DNA of 38,961 nt, from positions 1 through 38,961 of the forward strand of contig CAXGMD010000025.1 in assembly GCA_964010765.1 (NCBI GenBank), written 5' to 3'. The stretch's first letter is position 1. Each line of letters begins with the position of its first letter. The notes under the pieces were generated by a model that worked only from the letters and a program-made list of their open reading frames with translations, was not told where the DNA came from and searched no databases. This document shows, in pieces, positions 1 to 36,876 of this stretch. The translations under genes were made by a program, and so were the position numbers. Source of the DNA: an uncultured bacterium. GTDB lineage: Bacteria; SAR324; NAC60-12.

Positions 1-509
1 ACTTCAAATGCGTTGTTAGCTTCTGTCCACTCTTTGTCAACGATGTAGAAAATTGGCATGTTTAGCAGAAGAATGGGATCTGGACCTTTTGTAATTATAT
101 CAATGGTATAATCATCAACTTTTCGAATTTCTTTGACAGTTGCTAATGCAAAGCTCATTTCAGAGGATTCTTGAGTTTGACGCTTGAAAGAATATAAAAC
201 ATCATCGGCATTAAACGGGTTGCCATTATGAAATTTGACTCCCTGCCTTAGCGAAAATCTCCAGGTAGTGGCATCCAGTTTCTCCCACTTTGTGGCGAGA
301 TCTGGTTCCAATGAAAGATCAGCTTTCCGATGAAGTAACCTTCCATAAAGATTCCCTTTCATCGTATTGGTGGGACCCTCGTTGTTGGCGTGAGGATCGA
401 GGCCTAGGACATCACCTGTCGTGGCATAGCGGAAAGTCTTCGCTTCAGCGATGCCAGCAAGGGTTACCGCAACCCCCATTAGTAAGAGTTTCTTGAATAC
501 ATTTCGCAT
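1..509 (-). CDS. ABC transporter substrate-binding protein, family 5 (Dpp/Opp-like), 5' part; runs off the window
   Basis: Not in the ORF track. Manual translation from ATG at 509: MRNVFKKLLLMGVAVTLAGIAEAKTFRYATTGDVLGLDPHANNEGPTN...EPDLATKWEKLDATTWRFSLRQGVKFHNGNPFNADDVLYSF. Signal peptide, LDP motif and family-5 signature; GGAG RBS upstream. Confidence 0.9.
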   Translation of the reverse strand, partial: MRNVFKKLLLMGVAVTLAGIAEAKTFRYATTGDVLGLDPHANNEGPTNTMKGNLYGRLLHRKADLSLEPDLATKWEKLDATTWRFSLRQGVKFHNGNPFNADDVLYSFKRQTQESSEMSFALATVKEIRKVDDYTIDIITKGPDPILLLNMPIFYIVDKEWTEANNAFE

Positions 510-592: not shown

Positions 593-1825
593 TCAATTCA
601 ACTCGTTGCGTTGAATTTGACCATCCTGAATGATCATTTGCCAACGTGCATCGGTTAATAGATTGATGTCTTCCAATGGATTACCCTCTAACACAAGGAG
701 ATCCGCAAGAGCTCCTGGAATAACCTCTCCAAGTTCACCAGCCATCCCAAGAATTTCAGCGTTCGTCTTAGTCGCAGATTCCAAGATCTCAAAGGATGAT
801 AAAACCTCTGAGCGTACTTTGAATTCCCTGCGTTGCTCTGAATGAAGTGGCCCTAGTAAGTCAGTCCCAAAGCCGACTTTGGTTCCTGCTTCTTTGCAGA
901 CCTCAAGCGACCGGAGGCCATACTTCAAAACATTCTGAAGCTTAAGGATACTCACCTCTGGCAGCCCCAAGTCTTTGCCATTTTCTTCCATGGCAAAATA
1001 AGTGATCAGAGTAGGTACGATGTAGGCCCCTTTCGAAGTTGCGAGGTGAGCTGTTTTGAGGTCAATCAAGTTGGCATGCTCAATAGTACGAACGCCACAG
1101 TTAAGGGCATGGGTGATGGCCTCAGCAGTGTAGGCATGAGCCATCACGTAGGTTTTCCAATGCTCTGCTTCTTCAACAATGGCACGAAGCTCCTCTTCAG
1201 AATACTGAACATTAGCGATCGGGTCATATGGTGAGGCCACTCCACCAGAGACCATTGCCTTGATCTGATTGGCACCTTGTCGCAATTCCTCTCGGGTTGC
1301 CTGTCGAACAGCAGAAATGCCATCGGCTAATCTTGAGGTGAGTGCTGCTCCACTCGAACAACCGCAGGGTTCTGGGTGCGCTTGGGTTCTCCGACGGAAA
1401 TCCCCATGTCCACCAGTTTGACTTAGGGCTCGACCTGCAATCCAAATACGCGGACCACGAATCAAGCCCTGTTCCTGTGCGGCCTGAATCCCCCAATCTG
1501 CTCCGGCTGCATCCCTCACAGTAGTGAATCCTCTGTCGAGCATCTCTCCCATTAACTTTCCAGCCATTGCGGTCACTAAAGTCTGCGGAATGCTGTCGAC
1601 ATTGCGGATATTTAGGTCACTGAGGATCACGTGGCAGTGGGCATCGATCAATCCGGGCATTAGGGTTTTGCCCTTCAAATCAATCCGCGTTGCATTGCCC
1701 ATTTGGATTGGTTGATCACTGACTTCCCTGATTCGCTTCCCCTCAATCAAGATTGAGGTGTCTGGCCTTGGTTCATGAGAATTTGCATCAACAAGGGTAC
1801 AGTTCTCTAAAATCGTGAGGTTCAT
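593..1825 (-). CDS. Metal-dependent amidohydrolase (Xaa-Pro dipeptidase/prolidase-like subgroup)
   Basis: PGLIDAHCH (HxH), GFTTVRDAAG, TGGHGD, MAHAY, IEHAN and GTD metal ligands. Confidence 0.88.
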   Translation of the reverse strand: MNLTILENCTLVDANSHEPRPDTSILIEGKRIREVSDQPIQMGNATRIDLKGKTLMPGLIDAHCHVILSDLNIRNVDSIPQTLVTAMAGKLMGEMLDRGFTTVRDAAGADWGIQAAQEQGLIRGPRIWIAGRALSQTGGHGDFRRRTQAHPEPCGCSSGAALTSRLADGISAVRQATREELRQGANQIKAMVSGGVASPYDPIANVQYSEEELRAIVEEAEHWKTYVMAHAYTAEAITHALNCGVRTIEHANLIDLKTAHLATSKGAYIVPTLITYFAMEENGKDLGLPEVSILKLQNVLKYGLRSLEVCKEAGTKVGFGTDLLGPLHSEQRREFKVRSEVLSSFEILESATKTNAEILGMAGELGEVIPGALADLLVLEGNPLEDINLLTDARWQMIIQDGQIQRNELN

Positions 1826-1888
1826 AAATCTACCTGTGAAGTTTAGGATTCTTTGAATTTTAGCCCTAAATTGCCGAATGAAAGTTAA

Positions 1889-3433
1889 TTAAGCACTTAC
1901 CTTCGAAAGATACTCTCGGTGTCCCAAGCTCCCCTGGATCATTTCCAGATATTTGCTATGAAGTTGCTTCAATTCTTCCTGTGCCTGGCGCTTTAGATTC
2001 CTGTTTGACATTTCTTGACGTGCAGCCCCCTGAGAAAGCAGGCCGAGTCCATCCAAAACCGGGAAGTACAACTGCGTTTCGACGTGAGGAAGTCCTGAAA
2101 GAAAACCCTCAAAATGTTCTCGCTTTGGCAGACTCTTCTGCCATCGTTCCAATCGCCCAATAGATTCCTCACCCAAACATTCTTGATGAACAAATTCCCA
2201 AAAAGGGGTGTCCCTTCTTTCAGAACGATAGTGGATGTTCAAAAATGTTCTGAAATCATCAAACTGATGAGCAATTCGCTGGTTGAAATCTTTTCTGCCG
2301 CTGTAATCGCCATTCAGTGCAGCGGATAAGTATTCTTTGGCAAAAAGGATTAGCTGTACGAGAGTACTGTGAATTGAGGTGGCTTCCAGAGGTTCGAGAA
2401 AGCCTGCCGAAAGACCTACTGCCACACAGTTACTCTGCCAACTGTCCTGCAGCCGACCGACCTGAAAGCGTAGATCCTGTCTTGGTTCAATCGGATGACC
2501 GAGCACAGATTCAATCTCTTCTTGAGCTTCCTCGGGGCTACAATATTTATCACAATACACATAGCCACAGCCTAAACGATCTTGCGTGGGAATTTGCCAC
2601 ATCCAGCCAGATTTTTGAGCCCATGCGAGTGTGTAAGCGGGAATTTCTTTTGATGTGTCGAGATCCAGAAAGAAGGGCATTGCACGATTGACGGGCAATT
2701 CAGCTGAGTAATCCACCCATTCATTGCCAAGAGTTTTCTCAATCAAGATTCTCCGAAATCCAGAGCAGTCAATAAAGAAGTCTCCTTCAATTAGATCTCC
2801 ATCATCCATCTTGAGGGACGTGATATGACCCGTTTCTGAATTCCTGAGGGCCTCTTCGACGACTCCATCAACAATCCGAATTCCTTTGGACTTTTTGCGG
2901 AGATATTGGCCAACCAAGGCATTGTCAATATGGTATGCGTGCAGAAAAGGGTGGTTTGGAACAAGCTGGTCTTTTTGGGTTTTTACTGGAGCAAGTCCCT
3001 TGGAAAGCAGGATCTGGAAGAGGTGAGCCTCTGAAACAGAACGTCCCGCAGCAACGCAATAACTATTCAGGTACTCAAATCCATCTTCACCGGCTGGGGG
3101 AATGAGAAAGTGCGGATCGTCGATTGGACCGTCGTAGTGGTGGCCCAGCTTCCGCCAGTCTTTGTGGCGTATTCCATATTTGATGGTGCCTCTTGTCTCA
3201 CTGAGGAACTCGGCTTCTTCTAAACCAAAGGAATCAAGAAAGGTTTTAAAGATAGCCGTAGTTCCTTCTCCTACCCCGATCACGGGAATCTTGGAGGATT
3301 CAATGACAGTTACCTTCGCAGATAGTTCGTGCTGTCTACAAAAGTCCTGCAGCAGAAACGCACTGAGCCACCCTGCCGTACCGCCACCCAGAACAACAAT
3401 CTTTTTCTCAAATATTGATGAATTATCAGTCAT
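1889..3433 (-). CDS. Flavin-dependent halogenase family protein (tryptophan halogenase-like)
   Basis: GGGTAGW FAD motif, IGVGEGT, catalytic-Lys-equivalent TIK85YGI, FIDCSGF, WMWQIP (WxWxIP), FLEPLEATS. Confidence 0.9.
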   Translation of the reverse strand: MTDNSSIFEKKIVVLGGGTAGWLSAFLLQDFCRQHELSAKVTVIESSKIPVIGVGEGTTAIFKTFLDSFGLEEAEFLSETRGTIKYGIRHKDWRKLGHHYDGPIDDPHFLIPPAGEDGFEYLNSYCVAAGRSVSEAHLFQILLSKGLAPVKTQKDQLVPNHPFLHAYHIDNALVGQYLRKKSKGIRIVDGVVEEALRNSETGHITSLKMDDGDLIEGDFFIDCSGFRRILIEKTLGNEWVDYSAELPVNRAMPFFLDLDTSKEIPAYTLAWAQKSGWMWQIPTQDRLGCGYVYCDKYCSPEEAQEEIESVLGHPIEPRQDLRFQVGRLQDSWQSNCVAVGLSAGFLEPLEATSIHSTLVQLILFAKEYLSAALNGDYSGRKDFNQRIAHQFDDFRTFLNIHYRSERRDTPFWEFVHQECLGEESIGRLERWQKSLPKREHFEGFLSGLPHVETQLYFPVLDGLGLLSQGAARQEMSNRNLKRQAQEELKQLHSKYLEMIQGSLGHREYLSKVSA

Positions 3434-3526
3434 AAAAGCACTTTGGGAGCGTCATGACCTGAATTCTTTGAATGTTCCAAGCCTATTTTCAGAAGCATGA
3501 TACACTAGCGAAATCATCAAGTTTTC

Positions 3527-4900
3527 TTAGTGCAACGCTGGAATCATGTCGCCATGGGCTGACAACATATCATCTGTTAGCTTCCAAATGTCATCAAGAG
3601 ATAGTTCTGCTGCGGTGTGAGGGTCCATCATCGCTGCATGGTAGACGCTCTCTTTCTTGCCGGTTGCGATTGCCTCCACAGTGAGTTCTTGTACGTTGAT
3701 GTTCGTCTGCATCATTGCGGCTAGTTGGGGTGGAAGCTTACCAATCTTAGTTGGTGAAATCCATGAGCGATCAATCAAACAGGGCACCTCAACACAAGCC
3801 TCTGCTGGAAGATTGTCAATCAAACCGTTGTTGGGCACATTCCCATTGATCACAACGGCATCTCCGGTAACCGCAGCACGGATTATCTCTCCCGCGTATT
3901 CGTTGGATCGATAGGTTTCCAGCTTGCTTTCCTCCTGCAGGGTGTTTGCGTAATCGCCCCAGCGTTTTAGAGAGTATTCGCAACGGTCAACATATTCATC
4001 CAGAGGAACCTGGTATTGTTCCAGAAGATCTGGCCGATCTCGCTTGATGAACCAGGGTACATACTCAGCAAAGTGTTCACTCGACTCGGTAACAAAATAC
4101 CCCATTCGATTCAACATCTCATAGCGCACCCTTTCGGTCAGGTGAGACATCCGATGGCCTTCCGGCCTTGGTTTTCTGGCTCTGCTGGAGAACTGATCTT
4201 CTCCAGAAGCAATTTTTTGAGCGAGTTCACGTAACCTTGGGTATAGATCCTCGGTGGTTCCATCAGCGAGGCGCTTACCGAACTTTAAATAAAAGGCCAT
4301 GTGATTGATACCAGCGCATTGGAACACGATGTCTTCCACCTTCTCACCAAGGTCGTCAGCAAGCATTTCGGCAGTTCCTTGGACGGAGTGGCATAACCCC
4401 ACAGTCTTCACTTCTGGAACGAGTCTGGCGATAGCCATCATGTTCATGCACATTGGATTGACATACTGCAACCAGATCGCATCTGGGCAGATTTCCATGA
4501 TGTCCCGTCCAATATCTACGAGTACAGGAATGGTTCTGAGTCCACGCATGATTCCACCCACCCCCAAAGTGTCAGCAATCGTCTGACGCAGACCATATTT
4601 TTTGGGAATCTCAAAATCAATCTTTGTCGCAGGGTCATAACCACCCACCTGAATTGAAGTCTGAACAAAGTGGGATCCTCGAAGGGCTTCTCTTCGATCG
4701 GTGTGCATTGTGATCTTAGGATTTGCCCCAATTTGTCTGGCTACAGCTCGAACAATCAGGTCTGACACACGCAATCTTTCACTGTCAATGTCCATCAGAG
4801 CCAGTTCAATATTTTTGAATTCTGGCATCAACAATAAATCGGTGACAATTTTCTTTGTGAACTCAGTGCTTCCGGCACCAATTAAACATAGTTTTACCAT
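3527..4900 (-). CDS. melA: GH4 NAD+/Mn2+-dependent alpha-galactosidase (MelA-like), paralogue with an internal insertion
   Basis: IGAGS NAD motif, QTIADTLGVGG, YVNPM, GLCHSVQG, GINH, TESSEHFAEY. Confidence 0.85.
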   Translation of the reverse strand: MVKLCLIGAGSTEFTKKIVTDLLLMPEFKNIELALMDIDSERLRVSDLIVRAVARQIGANPKITMHTDRREALRGSHFVQTSIQVGGYDPATKIDFEIPKKYGLRQTIADTLGVGGIMRGLRTIPVLVDIGRDIMEICPDAIWLQYVNPMCMNMMAIARLVPEVKTVGLCHSVQGTAEMLADDLGEKVEDIVFQCAGINHMAFYLKFGKRLADGTTEDLYPRLRELAQKIASGEDQFSSRARKPRPEGHRMSHLTERVRYEMLNRMGYFVTESSEHFAEYVPWFIKRDRPDLLEQYQVPLDEYVDRCEYSLKRWGDYANTLQEESKLETYRSNEYAGEIIRAAVTGDAVVINGNVPNNGLIDNLPAEACVEVPCLIDRSWISPTKIGKLPPQLAAMMQTNINVQELTVEAIATGKKESVYHAAMMDPHTAAELSLDDIWKLTDDMLSAHGDMIPALH

Positions 4901-4941
4901 GTTAGTTCCTGTTAGTTATGAAATTGTGGAATGCATCTGCT

Positions 4942-6612
4942 TCAGTTGAAGTTCTGCGAAGTACTCTGGGGTTGGTCAGAAACAACCTCAAAAGCAGCGT
5001 TGACCAAGGCCTTGGTATATTCTTTTTGGGGATTAACCAAGACATCCTGTGTGGGGCCAGCTTCAACAACGTTCCCATGCTGCATGACAAGGACGTTGTG
5101 GCAAAGAGCCTTGATGACCTTTAAGTCATGGCTGATGAACAAATAGGAAAGTTTGTGTTTGTCCCGAAGATCCTTGAGAAGGTCGATGATTTGCGCCTGT
5201 ATAGAAAGATCCAAGGCGGATGTAGGCTCATCTAGGAGCACAAATTTGGGTTTCATCACCATCGCTCGGGCGATGGCGATTCGCTGGCGTTGTCCTCCTG
5301 AAAATTCATGGGGGAATCTATCCATAACATCTGGATCCATCTGCACATCTTTTAGGGCAACACGAACCATTTCATCACGATCCGCATCGCTATTGCCGAT
5401 ATTGTTGACCACCAAACCTTCAGCAATAATTTGTCGGACAATCATGCGCGGATTCAAGGACGAAAAGGGGTCTTGGAAAACAACTTGGACCGATGTTCTT
5501 AAGTCTCTCAGATCTTTTCTTTCCACATTATCAACCCTGCGCTCACCAAAACGGATCTCTCCCCCCTGAGAACTGATCAACCGAATCAACGCCAAGCCAA
5601 GAGTTGTTTTTCCAGATCCTGATTCACCCACTACTCCAACAGATTCACCCTCTCGGACTCTGATATCAACATTGTTGACAGCGACCAAGTCCTCGGTTTT
5701 TCTGTTGAAAAAACTCCCGTGTCTTATTTTAAAGACCACTCGAATTTGATCGCCCTTGAGACTGGAGGGTGGGTCACCTTGAAGAGGAGGGGGAGAACCC
5801 TTTGGTTCGCTCCGGATCAAATGCTGGGTGTAGGGATGCTGAGGATTGGTAAAAACCTCCTCAGTTAAACCTCTTTCTACGATCTCTCCGTTTCGCATCA
5901 CACAGATCTGCTCACTCGTCTTACGAACCACGTTGAGATCGTGAGTGATGAGGAGGACAGACATGCCATACTTGACCTGTAAATCCTTAATCAGCCTCAA
6001 AATCTGGGCTTGAATCGTTACATCCAGGGCTGTTGTTGGTTCATCTGCGATCAACAACTTCGGTTCATTGGCAATTGCCAAGGCAATCATGACTCTTTGA
6101 CGCTGGCCCCCAGAGAGCTGATGAGGATATTGATCCAATCTGGCTTCAGGTCTTGGGATTCGTACTTCTTGGAGTAGTCGTAGGGCACTTAAACGAGCTT
6201 CTTTCTTGGGCATTTTTTGATGTGCTAAGATGCTCTCCATAATTTGACTCCCAACCGTGTAGAGTGGATTCAGGCTGGTCATTGGTTCCTGAAAAATCAT
6301 CGAGATTGCGCTACCTCTAATTTTTTGTAATCGCTCATCTGGCAAGCCAATCAACTGTTGTCCTGAGAATTCGACGGAAGTATGCTTTCCAACCACAGCG
6401 CGTTCTGAAAGCATCCCCATCAAAGCCCTGGCAGTAACAGATTTGCCAGAACCACTCTCCCCAACCAGTGCTAGTGTTTTTCCCTGAATAATATCAAAAC
6501 TGACTCCCCTGACGGCTTGAACGAAGCCTTCAATGATGGGGAAGCCAACTTCAATATCCTTCGCCTTCAATAGTATTTGATCTGAATTTGTTGACATGGG
6601 AGGCTGACTCAC
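4942..6612 (-). CDS. ABC transporter ATP-binding protein, two fused NBDs (OppD/F, YejF-like)
   Basis: Two Walker A motifs (GESGSGKS/T), two SGGQRQR signatures, DEPT Walker B. The GTG start overlaps the upstream stop (GTGA); an alternative ATG lies at 6597. Confidence 0.93.
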   Translation of the reverse strand: MSQPPMSTNSDQILLKAKDIEVGFPIIEGFVQAVRGVSFDIIQGKTLALVGESGSGKSVTARALMGMLSERAVVGKHTSVEFSGQQLIGLPDERLQKIRGSAISMIFQEPMTSLNPLYTVGSQIMESILAHQKMPKKEARLSALRLLQEVRIPRPEARLDQYPHQLSGGQRQRVMIALAIANEPKLLIADEPTTALDVTIQAQILRLIKDLQVKYGMSVLLITHDLNVVRKTSEQICVMRNGEIVERGLTEEVFTNPQHPYTQHLIRSEPKGSPPPLQGDPPSSLKGDQIRVVFKIRHGSFFNRKTEDLVAVNNVDIRVREGESVGVVGESGSGKTTLGLALIRLISSQGGEIRFGERRVDNVERKDLRDLRTSVQVVFQDPFSSLNPRMIVRQIIAEGLVVNNIGNSDADRDEMVRVALKDVQMDPDVMDRFPHEFSGGQRQRIAIARAMVMKPKFVLLDEPTSALDLSIQAQIIDLLKDLRDKHKLSYLFISHDLKVIKALCHNVLVMQHGNVVEAGPTQDVLVNPQKEYTKALVNAAFEVVSDQPQSTSQNFN

Positions 6613-7724
6613 TTGTCTGAATAGGGATCAACGGCATCTCTCAACCCGTCTCCCATTGCGTTGAAGGCAAGGACGGTTAGGATGATTCCTGCAACAGGAG
6701 CCATCATCCAAGGTGCTCTGTTAAACGATTGAAAATCAAGAATCTGATTGAGCATACTTCCCCAAGAAACCATCGGAGGCTGTACTCCAACCCCAAGAAA
6801 GGATAAAAAGCTCTCCAAGAGTATTACATCAGGCAATTGATAGGTAACCCAAACAACGATATGGGATGTAGTGTTGGGTACTATGTGTCTTAATAAAATT
6901 CTTGGCCTAGACGCTCCAACTGCTTCTGCTGCTCTTACATAATCCAGACTCCTAATTGAGATCACCATTCCTCTGATCTCACGACTGAATTGAGCCCACC
7001 TTAAAAGCACCAGTATCGCGGCGAACATAATAAACACGAGTACTGCATCAGCTCTTCTTGGTAATAAGGCAAGGAGCGCTAAATAAAGTGGTAGATCTGG
7101 AAAGGCTAAAATAAATTCAACAAATCTTTGTGTCACAAGATCGAAAGTCCCAGCAAAGTAACCCGAACAAACACCAACAACGATCCCAATCAATCCTGCA
7201 GTACCAACAACAAGGAAAGCCATCAATAATGTTATTCTTGTTCCAATTAATAATTTGCTAAAAATATCTCTTCCTAAATTATCAGTCCCTACTAAATAAA
7301 TGTATTCCCCTTTCGTTTGATCAACACCAAACAACCGTGTTTCTAGATTAATACCCAAAAAATTCCACGTTTCTCCTTTAGTAAAAAAATTAATGAAGAA
7401 TTTTTGATTTGGATCGGGCATGAATGAAAATTCATAGGTATTGGGATCCATTTCCTCGGTAATTCCGTACACAAAAGGTCTTGGATGGAAGTTCCCTCCT
7501 TGATCAAAAAAGTGTAGTGTTTGGGGAGGAAAGTATTGACGCTCTCGGTCTGTTCGCGTTGGAGAATAAGGTGAGAAGAAGGGGGCAAATATTCCCAATA
7601 TTATTATTGATATGACAATAAAAGTTCCAATTACAGCATATGGTTTCCTTAAAAATTTTTTACGTACAAGTTCCCAATAGGTTAAAGATTTCTTTGGTTG
7701 AGAGTGCAAATTTATATTCTTCAC
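6609..7724 (-). CDS. ABC transporter permease (OppC/DppC-like)
   Basis: GTDNLGRDIFS, EAA-like loop YVRAAEAVGAS, SFLGVGVQPP-SWG, GDGLRDAVDP; 4-nt overlap with the upstream permease. Confidence 0.93.
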   Translation of the reverse strand: MKNINLHSQPKKSLTYWELVRKKFLRKPYAVIGTFIVISIIILGIFAPFFSPYSPTRTDRERQYFPPQTLHFFDQGGNFHPRPFVYGITEEMDPNTYEFSFMPDPNQKFFINFFTKGETWNFLGINLETRLFGVDQTKGEYIYLVGTDNLGRDIFSKLLIGTRITLLMAFLVVGTAGLIGIVVGVCSGYFAGTFDLVTQRFVEFILAFPDLPLYLALLALLPRRADAVLVFIMFAAILVLLRWAQFSREIRGMVISIRSLDYVRAAEAVGASRPRILLRHIVPNTTSHIVVWVTYQLPDVILLESFLSFLGVGVQPPMVSWGSMLNQILDFQSFNRAPWMMAPVAGIILTVLAFNAMGDGLRDAVDPYSDK

Positions 7725-8749
7725 GAAGTTGTATGCTCCATAGTAGCATTTCGAACTCTTGGATCAAGAATTGCGAGGAGAAGATCAGCTATCAAATTTC
7801 CTATGATAAGCAGTACAGCAACCATCATAAAAATAGCTGAAACGACGTACATGTCTTTTGATGCTACACTTGAAAGAATAAGAGGTCCGACGGTAGGTAT
7901 TCCTAAGACAATAGCTATTTCAATTTCGCCTTTAACCATGTAGTCAAATCTAGAACCTAAATTCATCACAATTGGATGCAGAGCATTGGGTATAGCATGA
8001 ATAAAAAGTATACGATTTTTACTAAGTCCTTTTGCTTTTGCAGTTTCAATGTACTGCATCTTCATTACATCTAATAAGTTGCCACGCATCATCCTTAAAA
8101 TATAACTTTGTCCTGCCCAAATTGAAATTAAAAGAATGGGCCAAACATGGAAGAAAAAATCAACTAATCGATTCCAATCCCAATATCCTTGCAAGATATA
8201 TTCTGGGGATTGGATGGCTCCAATGTAAGGTGAGTGCCATACAAAAGCTAAGAAATACAAAATTACGATAGATATGATGAATTTTGGAATCGCAATTCCA
8301 GAAAATGCGATCAGTGTAGCAACTGTATCTGATAATTTATGCTGATTGAGGGCAGCATAAATACCTAATAATGCTCCAGTAATCTGGCCAATAATTAATG
8401 TGACTAAAGCTATTCCAATAGTCCTTGGAAATCGAAGGCCTAGTAGCTCAGAAACAGGCCTAGATTGGCTAAACGAAGGCCCCAAGTCAAATTCTGTTAA
8501 AATTCCCTTTAACCAGTTTAAGTACTGAATAATAAAAGGCTGGTCAAATCCGTATTTTTCCCTTAGTAATGCCGCAATTGGCTCAAGCTCTACTCTAGAT
8601 TGACCAGTTCTTGAGATTGTTTGATTTAACCAAACATCGACATAATCACCGGGAACAGCATAAATTATTAAAAATGAAACAAAAGAGATCCCAAACAGTA
8701 GTGGAATACTGGCAATAATCCGCTTGAACAGAAAGAGCAATAATCCCAT
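7721..8749 (-). CDS. ABC transporter permease (OppB/DppB-like)
   Basis: PGD, YGFDQPFIIQY, YIETAKAKGL, ADLLLAILDPRVR. Start moved to ATG 8749 (MGLLLFLFKRII), the typical OppB N-terminus. Confidence 0.92.
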   Translation of the reverse strand: MGLLLFLFKRIIASIPLLFGISFVSFLIIYAVPGDYVDVWLNQTISRTGQSRVELEPIAALLREKYGFDQPFIIQYLNWLKGILTEFDLGPSFSQSRPVSELLGLRFPRTIGIALVTLIIGQITGALLGIYAALNQHKLSDTVATLIAFSGIAIPKFIISIVILYFLAFVWHSPYIGAIQSPEYILQGYWDWNRLVDFFFHVWPILLISIWAGQSYILRMMRGNLLDVMKMQYIETAKAKGLSKNRILFIHAIPNALHPIVMNLGSRFDYMVKGEIEIAIVLGIPTVGPLILSSVASKDMYVVSAIFMMVAVLLIIGNLIADLLLAILDPRVRNATMEHTTS

Positions 8750-8775
8750 GAGTTTTGAATATGTGTAGAATGAGT

Positions 8776-8799
8776 AGGGGAGCTCATTAGAACCCCCCT
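8776..8799 (-). terminator. Stem-loop between the SBP and permease genes (mRNA stabiliser or partial terminator)
   Basis: Minus strand AGGGGGGTTC-TAAT-GAGCTCCCCT, 10-bp stem including G-U pairs, just after the SBP stop; a common position in ABC operons. Confidence 0.55.
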
Positions 8800-8827
8800 T
8801 TATCACTTCAGTTGGTAGGGAAAGCGA

Positions 8828-10951
8828 TTAGCGCTTGTAGGTAGGAATAACCCCAGGCATCAACTCAGAGATTTGTTGATCTTTTGGAACCCAGAGCCGC
8901 TCACGAACCAATGAGTCTTCCGCCCACTCAAACATGAAGACAGGTACACCAGGATGAGCGTTCTTTACTCGCTTATTGACTAGCAATGCAGCAGGTGCCT
9001 GAACTAGACCAACAGTGTAGACATTGTCTGTCCAGAGTTGTTGAATCTTGCGAGCATTAGCTGAGATCTCTCCTGCGTCCCATGACTGCTGGATAGCATT
9101 TACAGCGATGGCCATCTCTTTCTCAAAAGACATGAGATCCCTCGAACCGTCGGCGCTGGATGGGTGAGTCAGAGGACAACCTGTAGAAATTGGGAGAAAT
9201 CTACATGTTTCACGTGTTGGCACTACCCAATGGTTTCTCCGCTCAACCATATTGAAATTTCCTGACTGCATAATTGCATCAAGATCATCATATGGTTTTG
9301 GAATGATGCGAATGCCCACGTCACCGAGCATTGATGCGACCGCATCAACTTGTTTCTTGTCTGTGGCCTCACCATTGTCATAAGACAGATCAATTTCGAT
9401 GTTACTACCAGTTTTTGGCAGGTTGCGAACACCATCTCCATCCGTGTCTTTGATGCCGAGGCTATCAAGAATTTGCATGGAACCAGCCTTGTTGTAGCCC
9501 CTGAAGTTGATGCTATCAACATCATACCAGGGGGAACCAGAGGTGAATGCACCAGCCCAAGGATGAGTGAATGGACCACGAGCGATAGACTGTCCAACTG
9601 CATTCCGGTCAATCGCATGGCTAATCGCTTCGCGGAACTTCAGATTTCGGAACAATCCCCGTAGCTCCCTATCCACATCGTTCTGAACACCAACATCCAT
9701 TGAATAGTTGAACTCCAGGTTCCAGCCGAGTACGCGAGGGCCAAATTGAGCCTTGGTTGGAGCATCAGCACTTTGTGACTGCTTTAACGCCTCAACATAG
9801 TTGCCTGGATTTTCCATGTTTGAGAAGTCACCTGATCCTGCAACCGCTTGTTTGGTTCTATCTGACCAAGTCGATAGTTTAAAATGCATCTCATTCATGT
9901 AGGGTAGCTGATTACCCTTCTCATCTACTTTCCAGTAGTACGGATTACGACGCATGATCACGATTTGATCCGGAGCATGCACAACTGCCACAAACATTCC
10001 TAATGAAACTACATTCTTCAGATCATCAGCTGGTTGGGCATTGGTGTAATCTTCATAGGTTTTTTGGGGATTGTAGCGCGGATGGTGATCTTTCAGGATG
10101 TGTGAGGGTCCAGGGCATCCCTGAATATAAGCCAACGCACTAACCCGGGCTGGACCCTGAGGCTCTTGGAAGTCAAAACGAATTGTGTAGGGGTCTACTA
10201 CACTCATGGTAGTGCCCACTCCCATGCCATCTTTTGGCATCCTGGAGGTGACTTTTTCATCCTGTACGTTGTCTTCCCACCAGAAGCGAAGATCTTCCGC
10301 ATCGAAGGCATCTCCATCCGACCACTTGACGCCCTCAACAAGGTTCATGGTCAGAGAGGTCTTGTCTTCATTCCAACTCCAGCTTTTTGCTAGATTAGGT
10401 AGAGGTCCATTCTGCTCTTCTGGCTTGACCTGCCAAAGTGGTCCTTGGCGGACAAGGCACTCTTGCAAAGTAATGTTGATGCCACCCCAGCCCTGATGCT
10501 GACCAGCTAGCCAATTCCAGCCTTCTGGGCGACCACCAATTACATGCCGGAAAACACCACCGTACTCACCGGTTCCATCAATCATTGCACCGGTTTTCAT
10601 AACAAGTGGTTCCTTGGGAAGCCTGTCTTTCACAGGAGGTAGTTGGCCACTTTTTACCATCTCAGTGAGAAATGGCGCTTCACTGTAGCTTGGGAGAGCC
10701 TTGTACTCCCACAAGTCACTTTGACCTACGAGATCCCACTTAAGAGTAGCCATGCTCTTCTCAGCTGGAATACGATCAGCCAAGGCTGTTGCAGCACCTG
10801 CTACTGAGAGTCCAAGAGCGGTGGTGAGAGCAATTTTTTTGGCATGATTACCAATTTTGTCCAAAACGCGGAATGGCGCTGACTTTTTTTCAGCAGAATC
10901 GCAAAGAGAAAGAATTTTCTCCTCGTTAATCTCGAACTCAGGATAAGTCAT
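8828..10951 (-). CDS. agpA: Alpha-galactoside-binding periplasmic protein, family 5 (AgpA/MelB-like)
   Basis: Motifs recognised from rhizobial AgpA: LPPVKDRLPKEPLV, RHVIGGRPEGWN, CPGPSHILK, RRNPYYWKVDEKGNQLPY, KLSTWSDR, QAVAGSGDFSN, FMFEWAED..RERLWV. Strong RBS CGGAGG; adjacent to a rhizobial-type melA. Confidence 0.85.
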   Translation of the reverse strand: MTYPEFEINEEKILSLCDSAEKKSAPFRVLDKIGNHAKKIALTTALGLSVAGAATALADRIPAEKSMATLKWDLVGQSDLWEYKALPSYSEAPFLTEMVKSGQLPPVKDRLPKEPLVMKTGAMIDGTGEYGGVFRHVIGGRPEGWNWLAGQHQGWGGINITLQECLVRQGPLWQVKPEEQNGPLPNLAKSWSWNEDKTSLTMNLVEGVKWSDGDAFDAEDLRFWWEDNVQDEKVTSRMPKDGMGVGTTMSVVDPYTIRFDFQEPQGPARVSALAYIQGCPGPSHILKDHHPRYNPQKTYEDYTNAQPADDLKNVVSLGMFVAVVHAPDQIVIMRRNPYYWKVDEKGNQLPYMNEMHFKLSTWSDRTKQAVAGSGDFSNMENPGNYVEALKQSQSADAPTKAQFGPRVLGWNLEFNYSMDVGVQNDVDRELRGLFRNLKFREAISHAIDRNAVGQSIARGPFTHPWAGAFTSGSPWYDVDSINFRGYNKAGSMQILDSLGIKDTDGDGVRNLPKTGSNIEIDLSYDNGEATDKKQVDAVASMLGDVGIRIIPKPYDDLDAIMQSGNFNMVERRNHWVVPTRETCRFLPISTGCPLTHPSSADGSRDLMSFEKEMAIAVNAIQQSWDAGEISANARKIQQLWTDNVYTVGLVQAPAALLVNKRVKNAHPGVPVFMFEWAEDSLVRERLWVPKDQQISELMPGVIPTYKR

Positions 10952-11030
10952 AACTTTCCTCCGTATTTACGGTGAGAAGGACCCCATTGGGGTTCAGAAT
11001 ACTTGACAGCTTCCTGCCAAGCGGGATTCA

Positions 11031-11050
11031 GCAGTCGCACCGGCGGCTGC
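11031..11050. other. Inverted repeat immediately after the GH4 gene stop
   Basis: GCAGTCGC-ACCG-GCGGCTGC, 8-bp imperfect stem. Confidence 0.4.
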
Positions 11051-12529
11051 TTAGGGCTGAAATGCGTCGTCCTCGACCATCAGGCTGGCGTGGACATCCT
11101 CTTTCAGTTCAGCAACATTACGAACCTTTTTGCGGGCTGCTCCCGTCCAAGTTCGGGTTTTGATAGTGTTTTTTGAAAGTCGTTGTCGGGCCGGTTCAAT
11201 CGCCTCTTCGTATTGAGGCAGCCATTGGGCTTGAGCGATCAACATTTCATCAACCATAGCCCATACCTCTTCTGGTGAACAAACCGCCCCAACCAGGGGA
11301 TCGTGCAGCACAGCCAGCTTGAGTAAATCCACATCTCCGTTCATTGCAGCTTCAACTGACATTCGCTGGACATCAATCGAAGTTCTGCAGGCAGAGGCGC
11401 AACCCATCGGTAATTCAATCCCTGAAGCCATGTGCATACCGAAGAGGTCGACGAAGCCGGTCGATTCAATGATGCAATCATCCGGTAGATTTTTGATCAC
11501 GCCATTGTTTTTGGTATTGAAGTGCCCTCTGTAAACTCTGCCAGTTTCTTGAGCCTCAATGATATAGCTACAGTGTTCCGTTGAGCGCTCGTATTGTTCC
11601 AAGGGCAACCCTGCTTGGTTCAACCATCTTGGAAAATCATCTTCAAACCAGTTTCGACGTTCTGTACAAACTCGTAAGTAACCTCCAGTTTCGCCATGAA
11701 TCCAGTCTGATAAGTCAATCCATGAATTGATTTCTTCAGGTCGTTTTCGATACCAGGGAAGATATTCGCTAAGATGTCCATTGCTTTCCGTCGAAAACAC
11801 TCCGAATCGCTCGAGCACATCAATTCTGACTTTTTCTTGGTTTGAGTACTTTGGATGTTTTCGGAATGCCTCGACTAGCTCTGCCTTCTCAATACTGCGA
11901 CCACGAAGTTTGAGTTGGATATACCAAGTCATGTGGTTGATCCCGCTGCAGACATATTCCAAGTCTTTGGGATCCTCTGCTCCAAGTACTTCAGCGATGA
12001 GTTTTGCGCCTCCTTGCACTCCATGACAGAGTCCAATCGTGTTGACCTTCCCATAATCTAAGGCCGCCCAAGTGTTCATCGCCATTGGGTTGGCGTAATT
12101 TAGGAAGAGAGCATCGGTCTCAGCATAGCTGCGAATGTCCTCACAAAAATCAAGAATTGCAGGGATGCTTCGCTGTCCGTAAAGGATTCCACCGGCACAA
12201 ACTGTATCTCCGACGCACTGATCCACTCCGTATTTCAACGGGATTTCAATATCATGTCGGAAGGCTTCCAAGCCTCCGATTCTAGAGCAGTTGATGACAT
12301 ATTTTGCACCAGCTAGTGCCTCTGCTCGATCTGTAGTAGACAAGACTTTTGCTGGTAATCCATTTGCGGAGATATCTTTTTCAAGCAGTTGTTTCACCAT
12401 CTCAAGATTATCTTGTGAGATATCTTGGAGGGAAAATTCCGTCTCGTGTAGTTCTGGAACAGTGAGAATGTCCCGAACTAATTTCTGTGTGAAGCCGACG
12501 CTGCCTGCACCAATAAAAGCGATTCGCAT
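11051..12529 (-). CDS. melA: GH4 alpha-glycosidase, rhizobial MelA type (CHGV motif)
   Basis: IGAGSVGFT, DQCVGDTVCAGG, NYANPMAMNTWAA, GLCHGVQ, STESNGHLSEYLPWYRKR, LAVLHDPLVGAV. Same melA-agpA order as in Sinorhizobium. Confidence 0.85.
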   Translation of the reverse strand: MRIAFIGAGSVGFTQKLVRDILTVPELHETEFSLQDISQDNLEMVKQLLEKDISANGLPAKVLSTTDRAEALAGAKYVINCSRIGGLEAFRHDIEIPLKYGVDQCVGDTVCAGGILYGQRSIPAILDFCEDIRSYAETDALFLNYANPMAMNTWAALDYGKVNTIGLCHGVQGGAKLIAEVLGAEDPKDLEYVCSGINHMTWYIQLKLRGRSIEKAELVEAFRKHPKYSNQEKVRIDVLERFGVFSTESNGHLSEYLPWYRKRPEEINSWIDLSDWIHGETGGYLRVCTERRNWFEDDFPRWLNQAGLPLEQYERSTEHCSYIIEAQETGRVYRGHFNTKNNGVIKNLPDDCIIESTGFVDLFGMHMASGIELPMGCASACRTSIDVQRMSVEAAMNGDVDLLKLAVLHDPLVGAVCSPEEVWAMVDEMLIAQAQWLPQYEEAIEPARQRLSKNTIKTRTWTGAARKKVRNVAELKEDVHASLMVEDDAFQP

Positions 12530-12552
12530 GTGCTACTTTTTCAGTTGATTGT

Positions 12553-13467
12553 TTAAACCTTGGGGTCCGTTAAATCTCGGTTCATTTTGCGCCAGTGGTA
12601 CTTGCGGCTACCATTGTAAAAGGGTTTTTCCTCAGCGGAAAGGGTTCCTAAGAATTCAGGATTTGGCTCGTAATCAAACCAAGGCTGAAAGAAATCCGGA
12701 GTGTATCCACCAAGAATCAGCAAGCGATCTTTCCCCGATCGATTGATTCCACCCGCGTGAATCGTTGATTCGAAAAAAAGTAAGGTGGAGCCTGCCGGCG
12801 CAACAACTTGATGTCGCAACTCAGGTCTTTCCCTGACAGCATCAATCAACAAGCTCTCCGAAATATCAACCATTTTGTGACTGCCAGCGATCACGGTTGT
12901 TCCTCCGTCATCTGGCCCCAGGTCAGTGAGGTTTGTTAGGCATTTTACAAACGGGCAGTGGAACAAACCTTTGCTGCGATAACTGAAAGCTGGGTCGAAT
13001 CCTCGATGCCATCCATAGTTTTCTGAGACCGGTTGATTCAGGTCTCGCCTGCGAATGTGGGCATCGGACTGCTCTAGTCGCACACTGCCACCCACTGCAT
13101 CTTCAGCAAGTCCTACGATCTTTGGGTTCGTAACATATTCGCGGAAACATGATGCAAGATGAGGGAGATTGTCAATCCGGAAGAAATCCCAAGTGGTTGA
13201 GGTAAAGAACATATGAGACTTGGGAGGTACTTTGTCCCGTTGATAATCCTGTTCAAACTGTAGAATTGTCTCCACCAATAAATCAACCTCGGCCTTTGCG
13301 AGTACCTTCTCTAAAACAACATAACCGTAGATATCCAGATGTATCCGTTCAGCAGGAGTTAATGAAAAAGTTTTGTTCGCAGAGGTCGGTGAGATAGCAG
13401 GAGTCAGATTTGGCAAATGTCCACCTTCAGGCGAACGACCAACATCTTTGGTGGGTATTTCAGGCAT
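12553..13467 (-). CDS. PhyH-family Fe(II)/2-oxoglutarate enzyme with HxG motif (putative radical halogenase-type site)
   Basis: GYVVLEKVL, LTDLGPDDGGTTVIAGSHK, H154-R-G156, distal H237 and R248. Confidence 0.85.
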   Translation of the reverse strand: MPEIPTKDVGRSPEGGHLPNLTPAISPTSANKTFSLTPAERIHLDIYGYVVLEKVLAKAEVDLLVETILQFEQDYQRDKVPPKSHMFFTSTTWDFFRIDNLPHLASCFREYVTNPKIVGLAEDAVGGSVRLEQSDAHIRRRDLNQPVSENYGWHRGFDPAFSYRSKGLFHCPFVKCLTNLTDLGPDDGGTTVIAGSHKMVDISESLLIDAVRERPELRHQVVAPAGSTLLFFESTIHAGGINRSGKDRLLILGGYTPDFFQPWFDYEPNPEFLGTLSAEEKPFYNGSRKYHWRKMNRDLTDPKV

Positions 13468-14323
13468 GAGTCTTTTCAGGCTGATTTATTTCAGAATCCC
13501 ACATTGTATAGGGAGCGACTATCTGCCTGCGTTCTGGCGTGAGTCGTTTCAATAGTTCCTTTGAGGGTCGGTACTGGTGTCGGAAATTTCCCCAGGAAGG
13601 TCCATATCGATAAACAGCAATTCGTCGAATACCACTGTTACTGCGCTTGGCTGAACCATGACAGATTCCATCCACAAAAACTAGCACATCTCCGGCTGCC
13701 ATCTGGATCTCCATAGCTCCTTCGATCAAATCACCGAAACCTTCGCTACGCATTGCCACTTTCTTTAAGTCTGGATGCTCAAAATTGGACTTGTGGCTGC
13801 CAGGAACAAGGACAGTTCCACCATCACCTGGACCTATGTTTGTCAGGGCAATCAGAGCGTTCACTTGACCACACATGAAGCGCCCCCCATGGAAGCGATA
13901 TTGATTTCTGAGGATTGAAGGATAGCCACCTGAGTGCATCCCGATTGCTTTGCCAATACCCCGCAAATTTACAAAATTCTCATCAATGAATAGTGGTCCA
14001 TGCGCATGATCGAATGTTCCCTGCCCCCCTACAAATAACTTCATGTGTTCAATCCAAGCAGGATGATCTATCAGCCTCTCAAAGGGTTCACCAGCCTCAT
14101 AGATTTGCTGCAGATTCAGACCTGATTGTCCATCATCTTTGTAGTCGTGGAAATGTACATTTCCGTATAGCGTTCCAGGTTCTTGTTCAGGAATTGAGTC
14201 AATGCATTGATTCAGCGCCTTCACTTCTTCAGTGCTCAATGCATTTCTCAGAACGATATACCCGTTAAGGTCAAAGAAATAAACGTCGCGAGGAGAAATT
14301 GGGCCGTAATCGAATCCTTTCAT
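13460..14323 (-). CDS. PhyH-family Fe(II)/2-oxoglutarate enzyme with HxG motif (putative radical halogenase-type site)
   Basis: FDLNGYIVLRNALS, LTNIGPGDGGTVLVPGSHK, H130-S-G132, distal H222 and R233; 8-nt overlap with the next gene. Confidence 0.85.
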   Translation of the reverse strand: MKGFDYGPISPRDVYFFDLNGYIVLRNALSTEEVKALNQCIDSIPEQEPGTLYGNVHFHDYKDDGQSGLNLQQIYEAGEPFERLIDHPAWIEHMKLFVGGQGTFDHAHGPLFIDENFVNLRGIGKAIGMHSGGYPSILRNQYRFHGGRFMCGQVNALIALTNIGPGDGGTVLVPGSHKSNFEHPDLKKVAMRSEGFGDLIEGAMEIQMAAGDVLVFVDGICHGSAKRSNSGIRRIAVYRYGPSWGNFRHQYRPSKELLKRLTPERRQIVAPYTMWDSEINQPEKTHA

Positions 14324-14336
14324 AATACCTTTGGCT

Positions 14337-15650
14337 TCAATTCAAAGGAGGAATCATGTCTCCATGAGCCTCCAGTAGGTCATCCACAAGATTCCAGATT
14401 TCATCAAGTGAGAGTTCTGCAGCCGTGTGTGGGTCCAGCATGGCGGCTTGATAAACGTAGTCCTTTTTCCCTGTCAAGGCAGCTTCTACTGTCAATTGCT
14501 GAACGTTGACATTGGTCATCATCACTGCTGCTAGTTGCGGTGGCAATTCTCCTACATTGATCGGCTGGATACCGTTCTTGTCGATGTAGCAAGGCACTTC
14601 GACGGAGAGATTCTGGGGGAGGTTGCTGATCAGTCCTTGATTAGCCACATTCCCATTGATCACAGTCGATTCACCGTTTTCCAGCGCATTGATGATGGCG
14701 GCAGCGTATTCATGACTCTGACAAACCTCCATTACTGCCGAATCATCTTCCATTTCCAGTCTTGTTTTTTCCCAACCAGCAATTTGATTTTCGCAGCGTC
14801 GGATATATTCATCCAGAGGTACATTGAAGCGTTCGATCAAGTCTGGGCGATCTCGCTTAATAAACCAGGGGGTGTATTCGGCAAAGTGTTCACTGGATTC
14901 AGTGACAAAGTACCCTAAGCGACGCAACATCTCATAACGAACTCTGTTTCCATCTGGCATGCGTCCTTGCGCTTCAATTTCCCTCAGACGTGGGTAGAGA
15001 TCTTCGACTCCGCTTGCGGTTTTCTTCTCGAAACGAAGATAGAAGGACATATGATTGATGCCTGCACAGAAATAGTTGATGTCCTTGATGTTTTCTCCCA
15101 AGTCTTTGGCCAGTTCTTCCGCGGTTCCCTGCACACTATGACACAGTCCAACCATTGTTAATTCGGGGGTGAGGCGATTGATTGCCATGCAGAGCATCAC
15201 CATGGGGTTGACATAATTTAGCATGGTGGCAGCCGGAGAAACTTCTTCCATGTCCTCCAGAATTCCTTTGATCACCGGAATGGTCCGAAGCGCACGCATG
15301 ATCCCCCCTACACCTAGTGTGTCGGCGATGGTTTGGCGAAGTCCATATTTCTTGGGAATCTCGAAGTCAATCACTGTGCTTGGTTGATATCCTCCTACCT
15401 GCATCATCAGAATGACATAATCCGCATCACGCAGCGCTTTCCGGCGATCTGTCGTCGCAGTTACCCGATTATTCAGACCCAAGGTGCGAGCCATTCTTTG
15501 AGTAACGATCTCAGAAGTCTTCAGACGACTCAGATCGATATCGTGTAAAGCGATTTCTGAGTCTTTTAGTCCAGGAGTGAGCAGGACATCTCCCACAAGT
15601 CGGCGCGCAAAAACAGTACTGCCAGCACCGATTAGACAAATCTTGGCCAT
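14337..15650 (-). CDS. melA: GH4 alpha-galactosidase (E. coli MelA-like)
   Basis: KICLIGAGSTVF, QTIADTLGVGG, NYVNPM, GLCHSVQGT, GINHM, TESSEHFAEYTPWFIK, DPHTAAEL. Confidence 0.88.
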   Translation of the reverse strand: MAKICLIGAGSTVFARRLVGDVLLTPGLKDSEIALHDIDLSRLKTSEIVTQRMARTLGLNNRVTATTDRRKALRDADYVILMMQVGGYQPSTVIDFEIPKKYGLRQTIADTLGVGGIMRALRTIPVIKGILEDMEEVSPAATMLNYVNPMVMLCMAINRLTPELTMVGLCHSVQGTAEELAKDLGENIKDINYFCAGINHMSFYLRFEKKTASGVEDLYPRLREIEAQGRMPDGNRVRYEMLRRLGYFVTESSEHFAEYTPWFIKRDRPDLIERFNVPLDEYIRRCENQIAGWEKTRLEMEDDSAVMEVCQSHEYAAAIINALENGESTVINGNVANQGLISNLPQNLSVEVPCYIDKNGIQPINVGELPPQLAAVMMTNVNVQQLTVEAALTGKKDYVYQAAMLDPHTAAELSLDEIWNLVDDLLEAHGDMIPPLN

Positions 15651-15674
15651 TCTGAACCCAAAATTGAGTGTTTT

Positions 15675-15688
15675 TCGTAACGTTACGA
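15675..15688. promoter_or_regulatory. Perfect 14-bp palindrome, LacI-family-like operator
   Basis: TCGTAACGTTACGA is its own reverse complement with a central AACGTT, 24 nt upstream of the first gene of the cluster. TTGACA on the minus strand at 15733-15728. Confidence 0.7.
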
Positions 15689-24406: not shown

Positions 24407-24409
24407 TCT

Positions 24410-33241: not shown

Positions 33242-33259
33242 GATGCCTTCATTATTGGA

Positions 33260-36026: not shown

Positions 36027-36063
36027 TCCGATCTCTTCGAAAAGTCTTCTTCCTTGAGATTTC

Positions 36064-36831: not shown

Positions 36832-36840
36832 AGGCAGTTA

Positions 36841-36864
36841 ATTATTATGAAAATTTATAATAAT
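36841..36864. promoter_or_regulatory. AT-rich inverted repeat upstream of the SDR-lar genes
   Basis: ATTATTAT-N8-ATAATAAT within a 45-nt spacer; overlaps TTGATT-16-CATAAT on the minus strand. Confidence 0.4.
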
Positions 36865-36876
36865 AAATCAAAAAAG

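Follow-up and report, generated by a model that had tools for sequence, protein, structure and literature searches.

The binding protein of the Agrobacterium mel operon imports melibiose, galactinol, raffinose and stachyose (PMC6683767), and HygX, an iron- and 2-oxoglutarate-dependent (Fe/2OG) oxygenase, makes an orthoester between sugars (PMC13374393). Fe/2OG radical halogenases are defined structurally by the lack of an Asp or Glu near the metal (PMC13489965), and the native substrates of the orphan flavin halogenases BrvH and those of Xanthomonas (Xcc) are still sought (PMC7336383). We analyzed an operon that combines relatives of these systems, located in a stretch of 38,961 nucleotides (hereafter the window; contig CAXGMD010000025.1 of assembly GCA_964010765.1) from an uncultured SAR324 bacterium. 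A preliminary description had presented it as an alpha-glycoside uptake operon with three halogenase-type enzymes from two unrelated families. We find that the locus modifies a known operon and holds a single genuine orphan enzyme of the halogenase type, a flavin-dependent halogenase (FDH), which, from its gene neighborhoods, has almost certainly belonged to many agp operons for a long time. The two PhyH-family proteins are, to judge from their conserved residues, very probably not halogenases.

Organization of the operon

All 11 open reading frames (ORFs) of the run were located on the minus strand (window 15650-593), in the order given by the preliminary description and with intergenic distances of -8 to 99 nt:

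15675..15688, no strand: perfect 14-bp palindrome lying 25 nt ahead of GH4a, likely an operator of the LacI family
14337..15650, minus strand: GH4a, family 4 alpha-galactosidase (CHSV), an extra paralog that is absent from the relative L002; PRK15076 score 651 bits (cut-off 486)
13460..14323, minus strand: PhyH1, HygX-type Fe/2OG oxygenase with H130-x-G132, N155, D218-x3-H222 and R234
12553..13467, minus strand: PhyH2, HygX-type Fe/2OG oxygenase with H154-x-G156, K175 (the HygX K137 column), E233-x3-H237 and R248
11051..12529, minus strand: GH4b, ortholog of rhizobial MelA (CHGV); PRK15076 score 558 bits
8828..10951, minus strand: AgpA/MelB-type alpha-galactoside-binding protein (substrate-binding protein, SBP), matching PDB 6EPY
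7721..8806, minus strand: permease AgpB, with a low GC content at third codon positions (GC3, 0.30)
6609..7724, minus strand: permease AgpC, low GC3 (0.33)
4942..6612, minus strand: AgpD, double-domain ATPase of the ATP-binding cassette (ABC) type, 56% identical to rhizobial AgpD
3527..4900, minus strand: GH4c, family 4 alpha-galactosidase (CHSV) occupying the position that the downstream GH4 has in rhizobia; PRK15076 score 621 bits
1889..3433, minus strand: FDH, member of the flavin-dependent halogenase family from an agp-linked clade, with GxGxxG, K85, WxWxIP and E350 intact
593..1825, minus strand: amidohydrolase, Xaa-Pro dipeptidase-like (below cut-off), which likely heads a downstream dipeptide ABC block

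A Pfam scan of the 11 proteins found no polyketide synthase, nonribosomal peptide synthetase, carrier protein or exporter, in agreement with what had been noted before. Between 30% and 43% of the sequence words are present in each of 17 metatranscriptome runs, and in four RNA runs contigs span GH4a-PhyH1-PhyH2-GH4b, SBP-GH4b, ATPase-GH4c, GH4c-FDH and amidohydrolase-dpp SBP. Since these contigs possibly include DNA and partly cover the upstream amidase gene, they attest presence only and not co-transcription.

Sequence comparison argues strongly that the core of the operon is of the melA-agpABCD type and serves alpha-galactoside import and GH4 hydrolysis. The best PDB match of AgpA is 6EPY, a periplasmic alpha-galactoside-binding protein (E-value 2.9e-191, the next match being at 4e-45), and all three GH4 proteins score above the PRK15076 alpha-galactosidase cut-off. 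The order GH4b-SBP-permeases-ATPase-GH4c is that of annotated operons of Rhizobium etli and Martelella, where the GH4 protein encoded upstream of agpA is 67-69% identical to GH4b. These lines of evidence agree on the melA-agpA identity assigned earlier. The CHSV or CHGV motif of the three GH4 proteins is of the type that we take to mark alpha-galactosidases. Elsewhere in the genome of the window (contig C84), DgoK is encoded beside an IlvD/Edd dehydratase, and no galactokinase (galK) signature was found in this 92% complete assembly. Read against what is known of oxidative galactose catabolism, the presence of dgoK and the lack of a galK match suggest that galactose is probably consumed through the De Ley-Doudoroff route.

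The flavin halogenase is linked to agp and GH4 genes

A search of metagenomes with FDH alone returned 80 loci. At an identity of at least 45%, 18 of 19 loci adjoin GH4, AgpA or AgpD, as opposed to 0 of 61 below 45%. When genome loci are included, 34 of the 35 high-identity loci are agp/GH4-linked, and the linkage still amounts to 19 out of 20 after removing eight loci nearly identical to the window and counting eight SAR11-like loci once. AgpA and FDH also coincide across genomes, being found in the identical 10 of 61 SAR324-class genomes (two genera), in the identical 3 among 401 genomes of Alphaproteobacteria (the scoring took in only 2-3 candidates from each genome) and in the identical 1 of 42 genomes of one family. 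On a Sulfitobacter plasmid, FDH lies between two GH4 genes, and the neighbors in other FDH-agp loci include galE-galT-galK, GH42, GH2, GH32 and GH63. Further FDH matches, known by name alone, carry the names Devosia, Kaistia and Bauldia. Conservation of FDH beside the sugar genes, on which the preliminary description depended, is therefore seen in SAR324, Pelagibacteraceae-like genomes, Sulfitobacter and others.

Some observations qualify this linkage. Many of the FDH loci are kin, so that the counts overstate their independence, and the sole unlinked high-identity locus (L060, 3.9 kb) carries a flavin reductase and no sugar genes. Against a need for FDH in such operons, its clade is missing from 246 of 247 AgpA plasmid records, nearly all rhizobial, with Sulfitobacter as the exception (the comparison covers the best 30 of 94 FDH records). 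An unrooted quick tree built from 17 AgpA rows places the two rhizobial-type rows that lack FDH together on a single branch amid the loci with FDH. This fits one loss of FDH, in a sample that had been picked for FDH presence.

Among eight loci scanned, more distant FDHs are found in T4-like phage DNA together with 2OG-Fe oxygenases, or beside TonB receptors, and one occurs with alpha-amylases. The next-closest homologs (35-39% identity; L065, L073, L080) are encoded in DNA that resembles that of phages. A locus often has several of them, in alternation with small genes for 2OG-Fe oxygenases and DUF6445 proteins, and L067 and L074 resemble these loci in layout. Within the agp-linked group, the locus L052 (5494-7245 and 12708-16180) carries a GH63 mannosylglycerate-hydrolase-like gene, GH2 and GH32, glycosidases that hint at algal low-molecular-weight glycosides and raffinose-type sugars.

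PhyH1 and PhyH2 resemble HygX

The HxG motif that had been reported in both PhyH proteins is indeed there (H130-S-G132 in PhyH1, H154-R-G156 in PhyH2). It had been read as the mark of a halogenase, overlooking an acidic residue four positions before the distal histidine, D218 in PhyH1 and E233 in PhyH2. The motif of HygX itself is H-X-G...E-X3-H, in which the acidic residue has changed place and the gap is occupied by Lys137 (PMC13374393). For both proteins the first PDB match is HygX (E-value 6e-13 for PhyH1 and 3e-7 for PhyH2; 1.8e-12 with a profile), and the top 10 Foldseek matches of the PhyH2 model (pLDDT 87.5) are all HygX chains. In alignments, which begin beyond the HxG of HygX (a motif given by PMC13374393), D218 and E233 fall on its relocated Glu. 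The relocated carboxylate is highly conserved: D218 is kept in 46/46 locus copies of PhyH1 and in 119/120 of the best of 3041 homologs, and E233 and K175 are each found in 120/120 of the best of 755 PhyH2 homologs. G132 is likewise present in 120/120 homologs and G156 in 111/120, with Thr in eight and Ala in one. K175 of PhyH2 falls in the column of HygX K137, and both proteins retain the Arg that binds 2-oxoglutarate (R234 and R248). The genome provides an internal control, since Asp or Glu at position -4 of the distal His occurs in both HxG proteins and in 0/19 of its other alignable PhyH proteins (22 of the 26 PhyH matches were aligned, four weak fragments being excluded).

The literature on radical halogenases points the same way. 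A paper describing a search pipeline cautions that HXG/A searches yield false positives (PMC12871659). In the available part of an atlas of radical halogenases (PMC13489965), compiled with a 3D filter for iron sites held by two His only, HygX and three full-length relatives of the PhyH proteins (CME25_08905, DCE37_13370 and CME19_14430; 70%, 50% and about 50% identity) are absent from the table of 946 proteins, in which the proteomes of the three relatives are otherwise represented by 1, 3 and 2 proteins; that these relatives were part of the atlas input is unproven, and a fourth relative, a fragment without the distal His, was not counted. Because of the conserved D/E-x3-H shared with HygX and the relatives missing from the atlas, PhyH1 and PhyH2 are very unlikely to be halogenases. 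Supplementary file 8 of the same paper, known here by listing alone, gives other tandem PhyH pairs (cluster 4; Latescibacterota, Poribacteria) as radical halogenase candidates. A search of the ESM Atlas returned generic PhyH clusters alone. PhyH1 and PhyH2 may conceivably act as a heterodimer, in the manner of TlxI and TlxJ.

Against a HygX-type assignment stand the low identity of the pair to HygX (about 22-24%), the residue of PhyH1 in the K137 column, which is Asn (114/120) or Asp and not Lys, and the description of HygX activation as 'halogenase-like' (PMC13374393).

Operator and downstream genes

The palindrome at 15675-15688, reported earlier as the one operator ahead of the run, is a perfect 14-bp palindrome and the sole site with at most one mismatch in the 3.86-Mb genome. 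It recurs exactly in L001-L003, L131 and L132 and upstream of agpA in G026, and with one or two mismatches in the relatives G009 and G020. With up to two mismatches it is detectable in 11 of 153 loci. In nine of these, all from SAR324-class genomes, it precedes the operon (some of the nine represent the same genome twice), and L052 and L091 are other sites. In L002, from which GH4a is gone, the operator runs straight into PhyH1. We take the shape of the palindrome to be LacI-type. A LacI gene directly follows FDH in G009 and G026, and its ortholog in the genome of the window, 69% identical, lies beyond the dipeptide ABC block. The palindrome and the LacI ortholog together indicate that the operon is likely under LacI-type control. 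No divergent AraC regulator is present upstream, where the neighboring gene encodes a penicillin amidase, and scans for sigma-70 promoters and terminators were at or below chance (15 versus 21.4 and 14 versus 16.2, respectively). A second operator-like site on contig C41 was dropped, as it lies within a permease gene.

The co-oriented run extends past position 593, with a dipeptide-type SBP gene beginning 85 nt beyond. The dipeptide-type ABC operon (window 1-507, minus strand; L048:12925-21542) contains a second amidohydrolase and an M20 peptidase, followed by LacI, and a metagenome contig 100% identical to the window carries the full dpp/amidohydrolase/M20 block and then the LacI gene. G003, G007 and G008 encode the amidohydrolase of the run at full length. 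A contig end truncates it in G002, and it is in pieces in G005 and L050. In L049 the protein is only 30% similar, and none was found after FDH in G006, L051, G020, G009 and G026. From this distribution, the amidohydrolase is probably the first gene of the downstream dipeptide block and lies outside the sugar module. Since LacI follows FDH in G009 and G026 but sits past the dpp block here, the simplest history would be that FDH and LacI were separated by the insertion of a dpp block with the amidohydrolase at its head.

The PhyH pair is an accessory of the operon

The PhyH pair occurs in eight of the ten operon-bearing SAR324-class genomes and is absent in G009 and G026. With the amidohydrolase split, replaced or absent in several close relatives, a single conserved pathway of all 11 genes, as had been proposed, is not supported, and by its distribution the PhyH pair is best regarded as accessory to the operon. 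No PhyH pair was seen in the soil/roseobacter-type FDH loci scanned, and a plasmid search with PhyH1 returned matches of only 23-27%. Of 36 genome loci with PhyH1, 14 have agp genes (seven SAR324-like and seven alphaproteobacterial).

In the FDH tree, G020, L052, L053 and the SAR11-like genomes share a group with the window (SH-aLRT 100), and the loci of this branch, together with L054, repeatedly carry extra oxygenases, namely PhyH1, PhyH proteins with HxD or a protein of the fatty-acid-desaturase family. PhyH1 is duplicated in most SAR11-like loci. Overall, a PhyH of some kind is found in five of six marine-type FDH locus groups (the genus of the window, G020, L052, SAR11-like genomes and L054); no PhyH was seen in L053, a short locus. 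Extra oxygenases were not found in the nine loci of the other FDH branch, whose neighbors were scanned in part. The FDH and GH4c trees join the SAR324 and alphaproteobacterial lineages. Independent recruitment of PhyH1 in the two was considered, as a quick free tree splits them, and is not claimed: the approximately unbiased (AU) test, run with 23 long-branch rows omitted, does not reject one clade (p-AU 0.28).

Several side observations concern these oxygenases. A third, ordinary HxD PhyH lies between GH4c and FDH in G020 (L128:14431-15333) and L052 (9022-9987), with a 54% identical homolog elsewhere in the genome of the window (contig C262). SAR11-like loci (L146:7869-8858, L152:18834-19823, L145:9303-10127) encode a fatty-acid-desaturase-family protein and a PanB-like enzyme between or beside GH4 genes; the former is reminiscent of the rhizopine demethylase MocD. 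At window position 14336, RNA contigs from two studies (runs X1 and X2) go from the 3' end of GH4a into unrelated sequence, which possibly reflects another population, living alongside, that lacks the PhyH pair here.

These data bear on the possibility that the PhyH pair, and likewise the amidohydrolase, entered a highly expressed sugar operon as passengers and act on unrelated dissolved organic matter, with FDH as the only true partner of agp. In its favor, the pair is missing from G009, G026 and the soil/roseobacter-type loci, the amidohydrolase is labile, and the RNA contigs leave GH4a for other sequence. The same direction is indicated by three points that weigh against a functional tie of the pair to the operon: the genome has 26 PhyH matches, so that a chance insertion is possible; 22 of the 36 PhyH1 genome loci lack agp genes, several adjoining sulfatases, enolase-family dehydratases or epimerases; and the closest PhyH1 relatives (Gemmatimonadota, Latescibacterota) are outside agp loci. 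Nonetheless, the recurrence of PhyH genes in marine-type FDH loci, the retention of the pair directly under the operator in L002 despite the loss of GH4a, and the fact that HygX-type chemistry is sugar chemistry make such a passenger role rather unlikely, and we prefer to see the pair as accessory enzymes of galactoside use.

Features of the flavin halogenase

The FDH model has the halogenase fold (pLDDT 94; TM-score 0.82-0.87 to known flavin halogenases, to which it is about 27-31% identical). Among the best 120 of 989 homologs, GxGxxG is kept in 118 and WxWxIP in 119-120, and K85 and E350, aligned to solved halogenases, are kept in all 120. The tunnel/halide-site motif Fx.Px.Sx.G reads FLEPLEATS, with T352-S353 instead of T-G, and its Thr is kept in 119-120 of the 120. 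The substrate pocket has been rebuilt. The Trp-binding regions described for tryptophan halogenases (Trp1 and Trp2; PMC8269204) are not conserved: the H-P-F of Trp2 gives way to G102-P-I104-D-D, and T59 replaces a hydrophobic residue. G102, I104, D105, D106, Q390 and H450 are present in 37/37 members of the agp-linked clade; in 108 FDHs outside it, the most frequent states are His at 102 (49) and Phe at 104 (42). By these residues, FDH lacks the indole-stacking pocket and is not a tryptophan halogenase in the narrow sense. No flavin reductase is encoded in the operon, a point against an active halogenase; one PF01613 protein is encoded elsewhere in the genome, as is the case in 5/5 other FDH-carrying genomes.

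A remodelled, polar pocket and a catabolic context, which includes streamlined Pelagibacteraceae-like genomes without nearby biosynthetic genes, would suit an FDH that no longer depends on halide and has turned into a flavin oxidase or monooxygenase with a sugar or cyclitol as its substrate. We consider this quite unlikely in view of the near-invariance of K85, E350, WxWxIP and the halide-site Thr; at the second halide-site position, where FDH has Ser and not Gly, the active brominase Xcc4156 likewise departs from Gly and has Asn (T-N; PMC7336383).

Instead of a sugar, FDH might modify a peptide or an operon-encoded protein (at a Trp, Tyr or His residue in AgpA or in a GH4), in maturation or regulation. 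Its nearly constant position next to GH4 or transporter genes would be accounted for, the active site of Xcc4156, a related orphan, is open and possibly accepts peptides (PMC7336383), and the distant homologs in T4-like phage DNA, beside 2OG-Fe oxygenases, or beside TonB receptors suggest a general role near uptake or structural proteins. Yet rhizobial MelA and AgpA function without FDH, and the invariant polar residues of the pocket suit a small polar ligand equally well, so that we hold protein modification to be distinctly improbable.

Finally, that two radical halogenases and one flavin halogenase convert imported glycosides or their products into organohalogens, as the co-location of the genes under one operator, the HxG of both PhyH proteins, the intact catalytic set of FDH and the 'halogenase-like' activation of HygX (PMC13374393) might suggest, is very improbable given the displaced carboxylate shared with the non-halogenase HygX, the structural requirement for no nearby Asp or Glu, the absence of HygX and of 3/3 checkable relatives from the atlas (PMC13489965; they may have been absent from its input) and the false positives of HXG/A searches (PMC12871659). 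Of the three halogenase-type enzymes proposed, FDH, with its catalytic set, stands and the PhyH pair does not. As the pair is not supported as halogenases, any halide-dependent chemistry would rest on one enzyme and not three.

A model for the operon

Taken together, the gene content and the operator make a LacI-controlled alpha-galactoside scavenging operon with oxidative helper enzymes the reading that we favor, by a modest degree of confidence. AgpABCD would import alpha-galactosides, candidate ligands being sugars of the melibiose and raffinose types, galactinol, floridoside and the digalactosyl-glycerol head of the galactolipid DGDG. The three GH4 enzymes would free galactose, to be burnt by the De Ley-Doudoroff route. 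PhyH1 and PhyH2, as putative HygX-type oxygenases with a relocated carboxylate, could abstract hydrogen at an oxygen-bearing carbon (anomeric or O-alkyl) of a decorated galactoside or aglycone, giving a lactone or aldehyde that could feed oxidative galactose catabolism; the odds that such a halide-free step takes place appear to us evenly balanced. FDH, from its intact catalytic residues, probably still uses FADH2, O2 and halide to form hypohalous acid (HOX), and would draw on a flavin reductase encoded elsewhere in the genome. Because its pocket is rebuilt with polar residues, it may halogenate or oxidise a polar, non-indole compound that arrives with the galactoside or derives from it, a proposal that we make tentatively. 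FDH would be dispensable for plain melibiose or raffinose use, as rhizobia lack it. The amidohydrolase would be a neighbor from the inserted dipeptide-uptake block.

More broadly, the FDH clade might carry out a halide-dependent step (through HOCl/HOBr or a lysine haloamine) on an alpha-galactoside or its aglycone, and HygX-type oxygenases might oxidatively cleave decorated glycosides at the anomeric carbon in SAR324 and SAR11-like plankton, which we regard as speculative and more doubtful than probable by a wide measure. If true, such halide-dependent sugar catabolism would mean that orphan flavin halogenases have a native function within primary metabolism, and that halogenated sugar products arise from bacteria abundant in the ocean.

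Other features of the window

AgpB and AgpC (window 6609-8806) differ from their neighbors in GC3 (0.30 and 0.33 versus 0.41-0.50). Within the genus they occur as two allele types (78-83% versus 96-100% identity), while the flanking genes are steady at 92-98%. Low GC3 and the two allele types amid uniform flanking genes suggest that the membrane part of the importer was probably swapped recently.

Further along the window, positions 23051-25753 encode a plant-type glutamate-cysteine ligase followed by a eukaryote-type glutathione synthase (341 bits versus the NCBIfam cut-off of 329.8). At 32375-38322, the nickel-pincer cofactor genes larB, larC and larE lie alongside genes for a short-chain dehydrogenase/reductase, an aldehyde dehydrogenase and an aldo-keto reductase; no larA-type gene was found among the window ORFs scanned.

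Significance

The literature searched, which included few subscription papers and was not matched for spelling variants, yielded no account of this locus or of a link between FDH and agp. An FDH clade tied to a single defined importer and its glycosidases, with matches in cultured genera as well, yields a short list of substrates and a testable question. The operon further links two large uncharacterised HygX-type families (3041 and 755 proteins) to galactoside use in abundant marine bacteria, and it is a warning that HxG alone mislabels such families as halogenases. What the window contributes is the SAR324 form of the operon, with the LacI operator, the third GH4, the HygX-type pair within the operon and the oxygenase-rich marine sub-type.

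Comparison with known systems

The operon shares with rhizobial melA-agpABCD an AgpA-type family-5 SBP, permeases and ATPase between two GH4 genes, with identities of 42-43% for AgpA, 43-45% for the permeases, 56% for the ATPase, 67-69% for MelA and 53-56% for the downstream GH4. Compared to the rhizobial/Agrobacterium mel operon (MelB, PDB 6EPY), the window adds a third GH4, two HygX-type oxygenases and FDH, and has a LacI-type operator where rhizobia have an upstream AraC regulator.

The PhyH pair resembles HygX (PDB 4XC9/4XCA/4XCB/4ZPI) in the iron-binding set HxG...acidic-x3-H, with the Lys137 column kept in PhyH2, and differs from it in PhyH1, where Asp and Asn replace the Glu and Lys of HygX. 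Moreover, HygX belongs to an antibiotic (hygromycin B) cluster, whereas the pair lies in an uptake/catabolic operon. With the Fe/2OG radical halogenases (SyrB2, BesD, WelO5, AspX, BtnX) the pair has in common HxG at the first iron motif; these enzymes are without Asp or Glu by the metal, whereas the pair has a conserved acidic residue at position -4 of the distal His.

Like PrnA, PyrH, Thal, SttH, BrvH and Xcc4156, FDH has the halogenase fold, GxGxxG, WxWxIP and the catalytic Lys and Glu. The indole-stacking H-P-F of the tryptophan halogenases is replaced by G-P-I-D-D, and while the other enzymes are bound to a biosynthetic cluster or a TonB receptor, the FDH of the window is bound to an inner-membrane ABC alpha-galactoside importer and its GH4 enzymes.

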